A DNA stretch of 64,000 nt from Lachnospiraceae bacterium (GCA_024404495.1 JAKSPT010000005.1:6483-70482); one strand, 5' to 3'; numbered from the stretch's first letter, positions 3,162 through 38,858 are shown. Numbers and translations are program-made. The notes: generated from the letters alone by a model not told the origin.

Positions 3162-4364
3162 TCAGCAGTTGGTGTAGTTATCGAAATAGCCCTGAACGAG
3201 GACGACGGGAGTGCCCTTATCGCCGGAGCCGCTGGTCAGGTCGCAGAGCGAACCGATCAGGTCGGTGAGCTGACGGGGCGTCGTGCCCTGAGAAGCCATA
3301 TTGCCGACGAGGCTGCCGGACTTTGCGCGGATGGAAGCGGAGATCGCTTCTCTCAGCGCCTCACCGTTCAGATCCTTATAATCGTTGTCGGCAAGGTACT
3401 TCAGCTTCAGCTCGTTGGGGGTACCGATCAGACCGTCGGTGAAGGCGGGAGAGACGACCGGGTCGGCGAGCTCCCAGATCTTACCCTTGGGATCCTTGAA
3501 GGCGCCGTCGCCGTAGACCATGACCTCAACGTGCTTGCCGGTGGCTTCGAGGATGCGCTTCTGGATATCGAGGACGAGGGGCTGGCAGTTTCTCGGGAAG
3601 AGCTTGATCTTATCCTCGGTGGACTTGTTGGAGCCGAGCAGACCGTATCTCTCGTTGCAGCCGCTGCCGTTGACCGGAGCGTTCATGATATCGTCGAGAC
3701 CGCAGACGACCTCTGCGCCCGCTTCCTTCAGGATGCGCTTGGTGCGCGCACGGGTGTGGATATCGCAGGTGAGGACGTTCTTGGTGTAATCGAGGATCGC
3801 CTGTGCGTGGTTCGCGAAGATGATCTCGACTTCGGCGCCCTGCTCACGGATCAGGTTGCCGTAGTATTCGACGTAATCGACGCCGGTGAATTCGTGCTTG
3901 TTGACGCCGAAGAGCTCACGGTACTTTTCGAGGGAAAGGACGTCGGAATAGGGGTTGACGCCCGCCGCGTCGAGCTTGTCGAGGCTGACGAGCTCGTTGC
4001 CGACCTCATCGGAGGGGTAGCTGAGCATCAGAACGACCTTCTTGGCGCCCGAAGCGATACCGCGGAGGCAGATGGCGAAACGGTTGCGGGAAAGGATCGG
4101 GAAGATGACGCCGATGGTGCCGCCGCCGAGCTTGTTCTTCACGTCTTCGGCGATGTTTTCCACCGTTGCGTAGTTGCCCTGCGCTCTCGCTACGATCGAC
4201 TCGGTCAGGGAAATGACGTCGCGGTCGCGAAGCTCAAAGCCTTCCGACTTTGCGGCTTCCAGGACGCTTTCGGTTACGATCACGCCGAGGTCGTCGCCCT
4301 CACGGATGATGGGGCAGCGAATACCGCGGGATACGGTTCCGACTCTTCTGACATTCTGTTCCAT
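3162..4364 (-). CDS. CofE/F420-0:gamma-glutamyl ligase family protein (function in this organism unknown)
   Basis: 400 aa. N-terminal VSRGIRCPIIREGDDLGVIV...ISLTESIVARAQG resembles the F420-ligase (PF01996-type) fold as I recall it. It ends 20 nt before guaA. Confidence 0.5.
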   Translation of the reverse strand: MEQNVRRVGTVSRGIRCPIIREGDDLGVIVTESVLEAAKSEGFELRDRDVISLTESIVARAQGNYATVENIAEDVKNKLGGGTIGVIFPILSRNRFAICLRGIASGAKKVVLMLSYPSDEVGNELVSLDKLDAAGVNPYSDVLSLEKYRELFGVNKHEFTGVDYVEYYGNLIREQGAEVEIIFANHAQAILDYTKNVLTCDIHTRARTKRILKEAGAEVVCGLDDIMNAPVNGSGCNERYGLLGSNKSTEDKIKLFPRNCQPLVLDIQKRILEATGKHVEVMVYGDGAFKDPKGKIWELADPVVSPAFTDGLIGTPNELKLKYLADNDYKDLNGEALREAISASIRAKSGSLVGNMASQGTTPRQLTDLIGSLCDLTSGSGDKGTPVVLVQGYFDNYTNC

Positions 4365-6868: not shown

Positions 6869-6967
6869 CAGGCGCGGAGTGATACTGCGTTTTCGTCTGC
6901 TTCACTTCCGGCGGCGGGGGCTGTTTTTGCCCCAAAAAAGATTTTTTGGAAATTTTTCAAAAAGGCA

Positions 6968-7025
6968 TTGACATTCTCGATATTCGAGAATATAATGGAA
7001 CCGTGAATACTCGATATTCGAGAAT
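6968..7025 (+). promoter_or_regulatory. consensus sigma-A promoter with two copies of a palindromic operator (PadR autoregulation candidate)
   Basis: TTGACA 6968-6973, 17-nt spacer, TATAAT 6991-6996. The spacer is the perfect palindrome attctcga-tat-tcgagaat (6973-6991). A second copy, atactcga-tat-tcgagaat (7007-7025), sits just before the RBS aggagg. Confidence 0.8.
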
Positions 7026-7037
7026 AGGAGGCTGCCT

Positions 7038-7361
7038 ATGTCAAGAAACAAATTACAAACCCTGACGGAGCAGATGTTTTATACCCTTTTGTGTCTGAAA
7101 ACCGAATGCTACGGGCTGGATATTCTGGAACGGATCCCGGCAATGACCGAAAACCGCGTCAACATCGGCTCCGGGACCTTATACACCCTTTTGGAGCAGT
7201 TTGCCGAGGCGGGGCTGATCCGCGAGACGAAGGTGGAGGGCAGACGCCGAAGCTATATCCTCACGAAATCCGGGCTTGAAGTGCTGCAGAACGAGGTAAA
7301 ACGTATCGAGGCACAGCTTGCGGATTACCGTACTGTTTTTGAAAAAGAAGGACGCAACTGA
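7038..7361 (+). CDS. PadR-family transcriptional regulator
   Basis: LCLKTECYGLDILERI...GSGTLYTLLEQFAEAGLIRE...RRRSYILTKSG is a winged-HTH PadR pattern. Confidence 0.85.
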   Translation: MSRNKLQTLTEQMFYTLLCLKTECYGLDILERIPAMTENRVNIGSGTLYTLLEQFAEAGLIRETKVEGRRRSYILTKSGLEVLQNEVKRIEAQLADYRTVFEKEGRN

Positions 7362-37060: not shown

Positions 37061-37151
37061 TACAAATAAAAAGAACCACTTCTGCGGAGTGTTCCGAAAA
37101 ACAGCTTCAAAGCACAAACGCCACATAGATGGTGAGTTAGTGCGCACACTT

Positions 37152-37189
37152 AAAAAACCGACTGAAAAACGAATCAGTCGGTTTTTTGT
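37152..37189 (+). terminator. intrinsic terminator (A-tract/T-tract flanked, potentially bidirectional)
   Basis: aaaaaaccgactga-aaaacgaa-tcagtcggtttttt. Confidence 0.8.
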
Positions 37190-37209
37190 TCAGCAGGTTT
37201 CTATATTGG

Positions 37210-37416
37210 ATGATGTTTGTCCTTCGGACAAATGATGTTATGGCTTACGCCATAATGATGCTTTGCGGTTTCACCGCAAAATGATGTGATGTGTTCCACA
37301 AATGTGCCGTCGAGGCACACATCATTCGCTGTAGGCGAACATCATGTGCAAAGCACACATCATGTTCCACATAGGTGGAACACATCATTTGCCGAGTGTT
37401 CTAAAGAACACTCGGC
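37210..37416. repeat. mirror-symmetric array of eight short dissimilar hairpins punctuated by ATGATG(T) (left half) and (A)CATCAT (right half)
   Basis: ATGATG at 37210, 37232, 37255, 37281. CATCAT at 37320, 37340, 37358, 37383. Hairpins: tttgtcc/ggacaaa, ttatggc/gccataa, tttgcgg/ccgcaaa, tgtgcc/ggcaca, ttcgc/gcgaa, tgtgc/gcaca, gttccac/gtggaac, gccgagtgttc/gaacactcggc. Confidence 0.7.
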
Positions 37417-37440
37417 ATCGGCGGTTCTTTTTTATTATGA

Positions 37441-37974
37441 TCATTTGCAGAAATTTTCAACGTAGCGGTCGATGGCTTCCTTGACGATGCGGACGGCCTC
37501 GTCTCTGCCGCTGATCTCGTTGACGGCGGTCTCCTTGTTTTCGAGGTTCTTGTAGACCGAGAAGAAGTGCCTCATTTCCTCAAAGACGTGGAAGGGAAGC
37601 TGGCTGATATCGGTGTACTGGTTGTAGGTCGGGTCTCCGGCGGGAATGGCGATGATCTTCTCGTCGTTTCTGCCGTTGTCGATCATCGAGATCATCCCGA
37701 TCGGGTAGGCGCGGACGAGTGCGAGGGGTTCGAGGTCCTCGGAGCAGAGAATCAGCACGTCGAGCGGGTCGCCGTCGTCACCGTAGGTGCGCGGGATGAA
37801 GCCGTAGTTTGCCGGATAGTGGGTGGAGGTATAAAGGATACGGTCAAGGATGATAAAACCGGTCTCTTTGTCCAGTTCGTATTTCTTCTTGCTGCCTTTG
37901 GAAATCTCGACGACCGCGACGAAATCTTCGGGCGTGATGCGCTTCGGGGAAATATCGTGCCAGATGTTGGACAT
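37441..37974 (-). CDS. ppa: inorganic pyrophosphatase, family I
   Basis: 177 aa. [41 protein letters not shown] are family I PPase motifs. Confidence 0.92.
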
Positions 37975-38329: not shown

Positions 38330-38858
38330 ATTATTCGGCTCTTTTTCTTTGGAGAAAAAGAGCCTTGCAGAAAAAGAACACCGCAGGGGGAGGAAGAGAC
38401 GCCTCAATCGCATTTTTGAAAAAATGCGTTCTCGGCATCATTCTCCCTCCCCCTACGGCGACCCCCTCTCTCTTTTTGCGTTCGCGATCCGGTACCGTTC
38501 GGTGCGGTAACTATCGTTCTCCATAAGAAAGCGGGGGTTAGTCCGGTAAGCGAACGGAAGAGAAAGATAGCAAGAGGGCAAGCCGTTCCCCCGCGCCGGA
38601 AGTTGCGGAGCAACTTCGGCACTTGCCGCTTGCGGCAACGTGCGGATTCCAAAGGGAGGGCGCGGTTAGATGCTTTTTCCGAAAACTTGTTTTTGGAAAA
38701 AGTATCGTCAGCGCCGCCCTTTGGGGTTTTCTTTCTCGCAAGCCTCTTTCTTTCTCAAAAGAAAGAGGCAATTTCCGTTTTGCGAATGAATAAAAGTGTC
38801 TGTTTTATGAAAAAATCCACAAAATCAAAAAACGTGCGGGCGGTTTTTTGCACAATGA

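Follow-up and report, generated by a model that had tools for sequence, protein, structure and literature searches.

A two-armed hairpin array downstream of ppa in a Lachnospiraceae genome and how it relates to Gut-1

The Gut-1 motif (RF01706) has been in Rfam since 2010 with one descriptive sentence, and was detected only in human-gut sequences (Weinberg et al. 2010, PMC2864571); our search of the literature after that paper found nothing further on it. The Rfam model spans one arm only (77 nt). In the Stockholm file published with the motif, which includes flanking sequence (PMC2864571), a tRNA or a stop codon is followed by a terminator, a GUGAUAU arm, a centre and an AUAUCAC arm. The central hairpin of this alignment is UGCCUGCGGCA, and the segment after it pairs back to the start of the arm.

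Other described systems resemble in part the element that we report here. ERIC/IRU and Correia (NEMIS) elements are likewise intergenic imperfect palindromes of 100-200 bp, often co-transcribed and polymorphic between strains, some copies of which provide a promoter or a terminator; they affect mRNA processing and stability. Compared with these, the present element belongs to another host phylum, is decorated with mini-hairpins and has inner stems that differ between copies, and no terminal inverted repeat or target duplication was identified for it. REP, BIME and REPIN sequences are also extragenic, lie at 3′ ends and combine opposed units of a hairpin and a short conserved flank, and a preliminary description of the array, made from the sequence alone, had likened it to such clusters. 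Membership fails, as REP stems are conserved in sequence and highly repeated, whereas here no two stems are alike, no palindrome sequence is conserved and the 64 kb analysed hold one copy. The broader view that the array is closer to extragenic palindromic repeats than to anything coding is upheld. The CsrB and RsmZ sponge RNAs similarly carry many copies of a short motif on a scaffold of several hairpins; in contrast, the motif here lies between the hairpins and not in their loops, is not fixed across the family and is present in complementary form in a second arm, and a promoter of the array's own was not found.

The array in the window and its match to Gut-1

We analysed 64,000 nt of a Lachnospiraceae genome (the window). 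The array is flanked by convergent 3′ ends, in agreement with the preliminary description. One neighbour had been named ppa, and both PF00719 and NCBIfam inorganic diphosphatase families match it (best NCBIfam E 1.3e-46, with 158.6 bits, under the curated cut-off of 200). The label 'SBP-like' given to the 479-aa gene on the other side has no Pfam or NCBIfam support. The features of the locus are as follows, with L001 and L002 denoting related loci that lack the array.

37062-37418, no strand: strain-variable insertion of 357 nt, replaced by 27 nt in L001 (blastn alignments with L001 stop at 37061 and restart at 37419)
37066-37080, no strand: left half of the putative ancestral bidirectional terminator (AAAAAGAACC), common to the 479-aa gene and ppa (empty sites L001, L002)
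37081-37151, no strand: insertion-specific stretch with degenerate unit-like remnants at 37086-37131 (sequence; direct repeats D4 and D7)
37152-37189, no strand: bidirectional intrinsic terminator with A6, an 8-bp GC-rich stem (CCGACTGA/TCAGTCGG) and T6 (inverted repeat I2, 14-nt arms 100% complementary; fold)
37210-37286, minus strand: distal arm, the left half of the preliminary description, read on the minus strand as four hairpin+ACAUCAU units (hairpins 37216-32, 37238-55 and 37262-80; linkers 37210, 37232, 37255 and 37281)
37287-37299, minus strand: s1′, the 3′ strand of helix P1, minus-strand RNA GUGGAACACAUCA, in the asymmetric centre (inverted repeat I1; MFE and centroid folds; family covariation)
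37303-37319, minus strand: central hairpin GUGCC-loop-GGCAC, family form GYGCC-UGC-GGCRC (hairpin scan; family alignment; helix 4 of the covariation analysis)
37319-37388, minus strand: proximal arm, the right half of the preliminary description, read on the minus strand as four AUGAUGU+hairpin units (hairpins 37363-82, 37345-57 and 37325-39; R1 and Gut-1 matches)
37375-37387, minus strand: s1, the 5′ strand of P1, minus-strand RNA UGAUGUGUUCCAC (I1; fold; covariation)
37390-37417, minus strand: 12-bp hairpin at the family's 'T0' terminator-hairpin position, without a U tract on the minus strand (hairpin and terminator scans)
37419-37434, no strand: right half of the putative ancestral terminator (CGGCGGTTCTTTTTT; comparison with L001 and L002)
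37441-37974, minus strand: ppa, inorganic diphosphatase, the upstream gene in the direction of the element (PF00719; NCBIfam)

On the plus strand, the array (37210-37388) reads as four units of AUGAUGU+hairpin, then a central hairpin, then four units of hairpin+ACAUCAU. ATGATG starts at 37210, 37232, 37255 (as ATGATGC) and 37281, and ACATCAT at 37319, 37339, 37357 and 37382. Perfect hairpins, the stems of which are mutually unrelated in sequence, lie at 37216-32, 37238-55, 37262-80, 37303-19, 37325-39, 37345-57, 37363-82 and 37390-417, so that all the motifs and hairpins described earlier were recovered in place. The fourth left unit (37281) has no hairpin of its own and supplies one strand of a long-range helix. 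This helix, a 13-bp perfect complement between 37287-99 and 37375-87 (I1), corresponds to the alternative pairing that had been suggested by two occurrences of gttccac and a single gtggaac.

That the array is not random was borne out by pattern counts, hairpin density and folding. The pattern ATGATG-N14-24-TGATG occurs five times in the window, each time inside the array (0.19 expected; 0 of 100 shuffles), and 7 of the 9 ATGATGT heptamers in the 64 kb fall within the array's 180 nt. Hairpin density, compared over the whole window, peaks at the array, and its fold has z-scores against shuffles of -7.6 on the plus strand and -8.5 on the minus strand, reaching -9.7 for a 306-nt minus-strand context. 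The linker spacing, previously thought to be about two helical turns, is variable (18-26 nt), and there is thus no helical phasing. With this spacing, and with neighbour genes that are unrelated between loci, the suggested likeness to heptad centromere or operator arrays of the omega or ParR type does not hold. The mirror symmetry seen at first is real in that the arms are inverted; the centre is asymmetric, the helix closes one arm only and the element has a minus-strand polarity.

The Gut-1 model gave 30.8 bits (E 6e-4) against 37314-37390 on the minus strand, under its gathering threshold of 50 bits. This was the sole Rfam signal in the array region, and at gathering thresholds there was no Rfam match anywhere in the window. 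With this match, and with an alignment whose flanks are two-armed, Gut-1 contradicts the initial impression that no element with such a layout had been described. The window element has the hallmark of Gut-1, at least three short hairpins in succession, whose stems covary and which a conserved heptamer separates, together with UUC-type loops and an origin in gut Clostridia. It also has the extended architecture, in which a long-range helix closes the first arm and a second arm is inverted. Gut-1 too is found downstream of a terminator or tRNA, and its published flanks, like locus L007, contain the second inverted arm, P1 and the 4+4 arrangement of linkers. The two differ in the linker, which is AUGAUGU in the window and GUGAAAU or GUGAUAU in Gut-1; no GTGAWAT pairs are present in the window.

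L007 carries a bona fide Gut-1 (56.3 bits; 47.9 bits for its inverted arm), which follows a tRNA-Trp gene and a terminator, has 4+4 GUGAAAU/AUUUCAC linkers and a P1 helix, and abuts a promoter. A covariance model built from nine other loci (R1, see below) matched this Gut-1 at 41.6 bits. The shared layout, the models that match across linker types and the arrays with mixed linkers described below give good support to the conclusion that the window element is an AUGAUGU-linker variant of Gut-1. It is likewise well supported that it represents one copy of a conserved bipartite hairpin array of about 180-200 nt in gut and rumen Clostridia. The Gut-1 motif is thus seen in the window as one arm of a larger, strictly organised two-armed element, of which the second arm, the closing helix, the complementarity that the arms keep in the different linker types, the association with terminators and tRNAs and the modular variation between strains are newly documented.

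Relatives in gut and rumen Clostridia

The pattern TGATGT-N10-22-ATGATGT-N10-22-ATGATGT was scanned against one genome per species. Among the 120 matches listed, at least about 35 were true arrays, with different perfect hairpins and (A/G)UGAUGU between them, and all of their hosts (MAGs or isolates) were Clostridia, comprising Oscillospiraceae, Eubacteriales, Ruminococcus, Candidatus Limivicinus and Faecalibacterium langellae from human, rabbit, sheep, goat and deer gut. A cultured carrier, F. langellae CNCM I-4541, has a diverged copy (L047). The same scan of viral contigs, used as a negative control, returned essentially no variable-hairpin arrays among the 120 matches listed, indicating that the array is not a phage feature, and blastn against a plasmid collection gave no match. 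A metagenome scan with the GTTCCAC-type centre yielded two true relatives (L259 and L260) and did not find the window's copy in other contexts. The search of relatives proposed in the preliminary description therefore found the two-armed ATGATGT-hairpin design again in about 20 further loci of gut and rumen Clostridia. The same description had taken confinement to one strain, with no conservation in orthologous intergenic regions, as a sign against the pattern; the family is conserved elsewhere, yet the orthologous intergenic region of the closest strain is empty.

Loci placed side by side, ten of them aligned, define a class A order of T0 (the upstream gene's strong terminator hairpin), four-unit proximal arm, central hairpin, short asymmetric segment and inverted four-unit distal arm. 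An outward sigma-70 promoter often comes next, its -35 box (TTGAAA or TTGACA) lying directly against the last linker; that of L094 agrees with the consensus at 11 of 12 positions and has a TG extension. In some tRNA-linked copies TTGAA is present at both ends and also serves as the -35 box. The T0-element-promoter module is duplicated in tandem in L259. Class B elements (L015, L007a, L029 and L123) are of the same design with the CAUCA-type arm first.

The linker is the most conserved feature of the family alignment, each element contains eight copies of it, and the sequences of the hairpins vary freely. These properties favour a multivalent platform, in which the eight heptamers, four per orientation, would bind either an RNA-binding protein, in the manner of a CsrB sponge, or a DNA-binding protein, as a heptad operator or centromere does, and the hairpins would only space and present them. 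We regard such a platform as very doubtful. Linkers of several types are found (AUGAUGU, GUGAUGU, GUGAAAU, GUGAUAU and UGAUGAUAUACA), two of which coexist in the genome of L007, counting against one sequence-specific protein as the main constraint, and types are mixed even within single arrays, in one arm (L084, L087 and L108). The unphased spacing and the lack of a cognate gene nearby also speak against it, as does the conservation of complementarity between the arms in place of one sequence.

The polarity of the elements always follows the upstream gene. Upstream tRNA genes are those for Ser, Leu (three times), Tyr, Trp, Gln and Glu, with Arg in the data of Weinberg et al.; protein genes in this position are a serine recombinase gene (L011) and, in the window, ppa. 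A link to class-II tRNAs was rejected, being contradicted by the tRNA-Trp, Gln, Glu and Arg cases. In L031 and L051 the upstream sequence is a tRNA 3′ fragment with T0. The L031 fragment duplicates, over 23 nt, the terminal part of a tRNA-Ser gene 6.9 kb away, indicating that an island integrated between the tRNA and its T0-array; we therefore discarded tRNA 3′ fragments as a sign of array mobility, the fragment in L031 being the far end of the 6.9-kb island in tRNA-Ser.

When ORFs near 28 arrays were compared all against all, the only recurrent gene encoded a PF05635 four-helix-bundle protein, at three loci. No reverse transcriptase lay beside it at those loci, which argues against a retroelement of the DGR type. 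Genes downstream were otherwise unrelated between loci; from their sequences, we take some to be a Nudix-type hydrolase, an isochorismatase-type hydrolase and a membrane protein.

Covariation, helix P1 and the complementary arms

Model R1 was built from the proximal arm and centre of nine other loci, with the window left out, and RNAalifold itself picked P1 and three hairpins for its consensus. R1 matched the window at 37279-37392 on the minus strand with 78.2 bits (E about 1.5e-19). Apart from both arms, no site in the 64 kb exceeded 14 bits, so that this search revealed no second copy of the element; the distal arm on the plus strand gave a weak self-match of 27.3 bits. In the fetched loci R1 found 21 further elements. 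In the R1 alignment of 21 distinct sequences, which is fitted to the model, 92.8% of cells are paired and double changes affect 19 of 29 pairs in 79 cells, a result that 0 of 500 shuffles equalled, against at most 8 such cells in slid controls.

The central hairpin is followed by a segment (for example GGCAAACAUCG) whose complement takes in the first linker and, of the first hairpin, the 5′ half (UGAUGUUUGCC); together they form helix P1. Covariant forms of P1 are UUUGCC/GGCAAA, UUUGCU/AGCAAA and GUGUUCCAC/GUGGAACAC, and in Gut-1 proper AAAUUCGUUCC/GGAACGAAUUU. On alignment A1, P1 is 96% paired with five double-change pairs, matched by no shuffle, while slid controls are 29-52% paired; across the two alignments five to seven of its pairs covary. 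In the window P1 pairs 37375-87 with 37287-99 on the minus strand. Since s1 shares sequence with the first linker and with the first hairpin's 5′ half, P1 cannot form at the same time as that hairpin.

The arms are related to each other through their linkers. In 19 of 19 elements the most repeated hexamer of the distal arm is the reverse complement of that of the proximal arm, each usually being present four times. This complementarity spans three linker types (ATGATG/CATCAT, GTGATG/CATCAC and GTGAAA/TTTCAC), with GTGATAT/ATATCAC as a fourth pair in the data of Weinberg et al. The arms therefore conserve mutual complementarity and not one fixed sequence: the element has several linker 'dialects', in each of which the two arms match. 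The register of individual linker pairs fits a nested arrangement in L042 and does not in L120; the linkers hardly vary.

The repeated 13-mers CAAAUGAUGUUUG and CAAACAUCAUUUG, each a linker with the conserved outer stem, are mutually complementary, and the element can thus fold either as nine local hairpins or with its arms zipped together. For 17 of 17 isolated elements the predicted MFE fold contains 15-54 inter-arm base pairs, whether RNA or DNA parameters are used. With its natural flanks, the minus strand of the window is predicted to prefer P1 and local hairpins. According to these predictions, at least two global folds, a hairpin mode and a zipped mode, would so compete; together with P1 they are the structure models that we offer. 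At their most speculative, the data could be read to mean that Gut-1-type elements form a class of their own, made up of modular cassettes with a terminator, an array of eight hairpins and a promoter, whose arms zip into a ladder of four-way junctions within or between molecules, and which act either as self-assembling tRNA-linked RNAs, like the large ROOL and GOLLD RNAs, or as a new kind of mobile DNA that is recognised by its hairpins and encodes no transposase. We think this improbable.

Of 107 distinct unit hairpins gathered from 27 loci, nearly all form perfect folds. A C-G pair closes 88 of 103, and the loops are mostly of three bases (UUC 32, UGC 7, UAU 5, UAC 4); UUC, UGC and UAC read C-GAA-G, C-GCA-G and C-GUA-G on the complement. 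UU(U)G...CAA(A), the outer stem, is conserved; the 3-5 bp inside it are free to vary. Stems are about 99% Watson-Crick with almost no wobble, and wobble-compatible mismatches number 28 and 23 on the two strands, showing no bias.

These features bring into consideration a DNA-level element, which we rank a close second among the readings but regard as somewhat unlikely. Its palindromes would act in DNA, either by forming cruciforms or by folding into hairpins where the DNA is transiently single-stranded. They might serve as BIME-like spacers, topological or insulating, that separate a strongly transcribed gene (tRNA or ppa) from its neighbour, or as substrates of a hairpin-recognising recombinase or nuclease that also moves them. 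The predominance of C-G-closed triloops is in its favour, as one strand then has the form C-GNA-G, a very stable DNA mini-hairpin. The nearly pure Watson-Crick pairing, the absence of strand bias among mismatches, the zipped fold predicted with DNA parameters, the presence of both unit orientations in every element with their order swapped in class B, and the presence/absence polymorphism in a terminator loop described below point the same way. Canonical copies, moreover, fill exactly the untranscribed gap between the U tract of a terminator and the next -35 box, and with a strong terminator ahead of the array little transcript may reach it. Against action as DNA, stems of only 5-8 bp are short for cruciform extrusion, and no associated enzyme gene was found among neighbour genes that are unrelated between loci. 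The fixed 4+4 architecture, the covarying long-range helix P1 and the constant polarity are more typical of a discrete folded molecule, and stand in favour of a discrete folded transcript.

Transcription, insertion at ppa and possible action

The window copy lacks the canonical flanks of a U-tract terminator and an outward promoter. On the minus strand a consensus scan found no terminator-like site from 37441 to 37390. As the 12-bp hairpin has no U tract on this strand, ppa transcription is expected to continue into the array, and with a terminator at 37189-37152 after it the array should fall within the 3′ UTR of ppa, with the polarity of the family model. The terminator at 37152-37189 is placed so that plus-strand transcripts end short of the array and minus-strand ones once they have crossed it; it was not flagged by the consensus terminator scan, which we attribute to the scan's handling of the A/T-extended stem. 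The earlier suggestion that RNA from either flanking gene would present the array is accordingly retained for ppa transcripts, whereas a plus-strand transcript should stop at 37152-89. Promoter scans found no promoter belonging to the array itself. Tandem intrinsic terminators were rejected, because AUGAUGU and not a U tract follows the unit hairpins and the lone terminator-like site in the array is weak. CRISPR arrays, type III antitoxin repeats, small ORFs (ATGATG...TGA) and a parS-like half-site (TGTTCCAC) were also discarded, being at odds with the variable length of the units or with the pattern of the family.

We rank first, though only tentatively and at somewhat less than even chances, an intergenic imperfect-palindrome cassette of the ERIC/Correia kind with effects at the RNA level. 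Such a cassette would spread or be exchanged between genomes, be tolerated because it lies outside genes, and act through the folding of the transcript that carries it, which here would be the ppa 3′ UTR ending at 37189-37152. The folded array might form a compact 3′-end 'punctuation' that buffers against read-through and exonuclease attack, and some factor may bind the eight repeated heptamers.

Comparison of strains bears on the origin of the window copy. The closest relative (L001, GCA_045629025.1) has flanks 98.3-98.7% identical to those of the window, and 27 nt with a single bidirectional terminator replace 37062-37418. L002, 86-89% identical, also lacks the array, as do more distant ppa loci. 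The arms of this terminator now lie at 37066-80 and 37419-34 in the window, indicating that the insertion sits in the terminator's loop. The comparison thus supports arrival of the array within a 357-nt insertion in the loop of the terminator between ppa and its neighbour, as judged from the sequences of the filled and empty sites. No transposase, terminal inverted repeat or target duplication was found at the window/L001 filled/empty junction.

A run of 224 nt that matches 37168-37391 at 100% identity is found in L003, whose ppa is 86.7% identical, and the flanks differ on both sides; the ends of the homology fall in a hairpin loop and on the edge of a hairpin, another hairpin replaces that at 37390-417, and blastn found no counterpart of 37081-37151. 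The element is therefore both present or absent between close strains (L001) and present as a near-identical copy in a diverged genome (L003). In L282, whose ppa protein is 98% identical, everything from the ppa-side junction through the 12-bp hairpin and the proximal arm to the centre is exactly the same, and the distal arm differs, with compensated stem changes, other loops and an unrelated far flank. The modular differences of L003 and L282 support the view that the element is exchanged or rearranged as whole modules between close strains, a view drawn from metagenome-assembled contigs, among which chimeras are possible.

The same comparisons allow that the window copy is a neutral relic, a decaying fragment brought by recombination and without a role here. 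Consistent with this, the family's U-tract terminator and outward promoter are missing, the closest strain lacks the element with no visible consequence, and degenerate unit remnants adjoin at 37086-37131; among these GCGGAGTGTTC at 37086-96 nearly duplicates the 5′ arm that belongs to the hairpin at 37390-417, and its complement lies at 37406-16. A relic nevertheless seems distinctly unlikely, since the nine hairpins, P1 and the eight linkers have all stayed intact and the proximal half is identical in three independent contigs. The cassette with RNA-level effects thus remains our preferred reading. The element is strain-variable in abundant gut Clostridia, and the natural filled and empty alleles (the window and GCA_045629025.1), together with the cultured carrier, could separate action as RNA from action as DNA.

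Arrays beside tRNA genes

In the compared contig locus L259 (613-970), tRNA-Gln is followed by two complete elements in tandem. The repeated module consists of the terminator hairpin of the upstream gene (T0), the element and a TTGAAA-17-TATAAT promoter, in that order, and the first promoter is therefore predicted to fire straight into the second T0 hairpin. At locus L012 (252-620), 32-nt inverted copies comprising the last 14 nt of tRNA-Ser and the start of its terminator were found on both sides of the array; one copy is part of an intact tRNA-Ser, and the other is a fragment. At a third locus (L031, 294-7382) the 3′ end of tRNA-Ser(gct) is present as a 23-nt direct repeat, 6.9 kb from the intact gene and adjoining the T0-array. 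This direct repeat is the mark left by integration of an island.

PF05635 genes downstream of arrays

In three loci, a promoter abutting the array is predicted to drive a gene of family PF05635, described as '23S rRNA intervening sequence' or four-helix-bundle, Avd-like:

L046 4864-5217, PF05635 gene with array-abutting promoter
L098 2910-3359, PF05635 gene with array-abutting promoter
L029 1682-1894, PF05635 gene with array-abutting promoter

No reverse transcriptase was found near the PF05635 gene at any of these three loci.

Surroundings of ppa

Degenerate, unit-like remnants were observed within the insertion, at window 37086-37131. Here GCGGAGTGTTC nearly duplicates the 5′ arm of the hairpin at 37390-37417, and ACGCCACATAGATG is similar to ACGCCATAATGATG at 37247. 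At locus L003 (3160-3395), ppa and the array are separated by approximately 200 nt that hold additional unrelated hairpins and a terminator. The 3′ flank of ppa seems to be a hot spot where hairpin modules occur. In another relative (L284, 2031-2894), genes for a barnase-like ribonuclease and for barstar are located directly 3′ of ppa, the position occupied by the array in the window.

An intergenic region upstream of ppa (window 38540-38800) is GC-rich and dense in hairpins, and gave no Rfam match. It contains:

within 38540-38800, long inverted repeat CCAAAGGGAGGGCGCGG ... CAGCGCCGCCCTTTGGGG
within 38540-38800, further palindrome CTTTCTTTCTC-AAAA-GAAAGAGG

Other hairpins and palindromes

An array of another type is present at locus L107 (839-1085), where short variable hairpins are separated by the 12-nt linker UGAUGAUAUACA, which occurs at least eight times. 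The same locus also carries an AUGAUGU-type array at 3723-3891.

At window 6960-7030, which ranks second in hairpin density across the window, a promoter-like stretch lies between two copies of the palindrome ATATTCGAGAATAT, just 5′ of a small ORF (about 7040-7361). The ORF looks like a PadR-type regulator, and the palindrome pair is probably an ordinary autoregulated operator.
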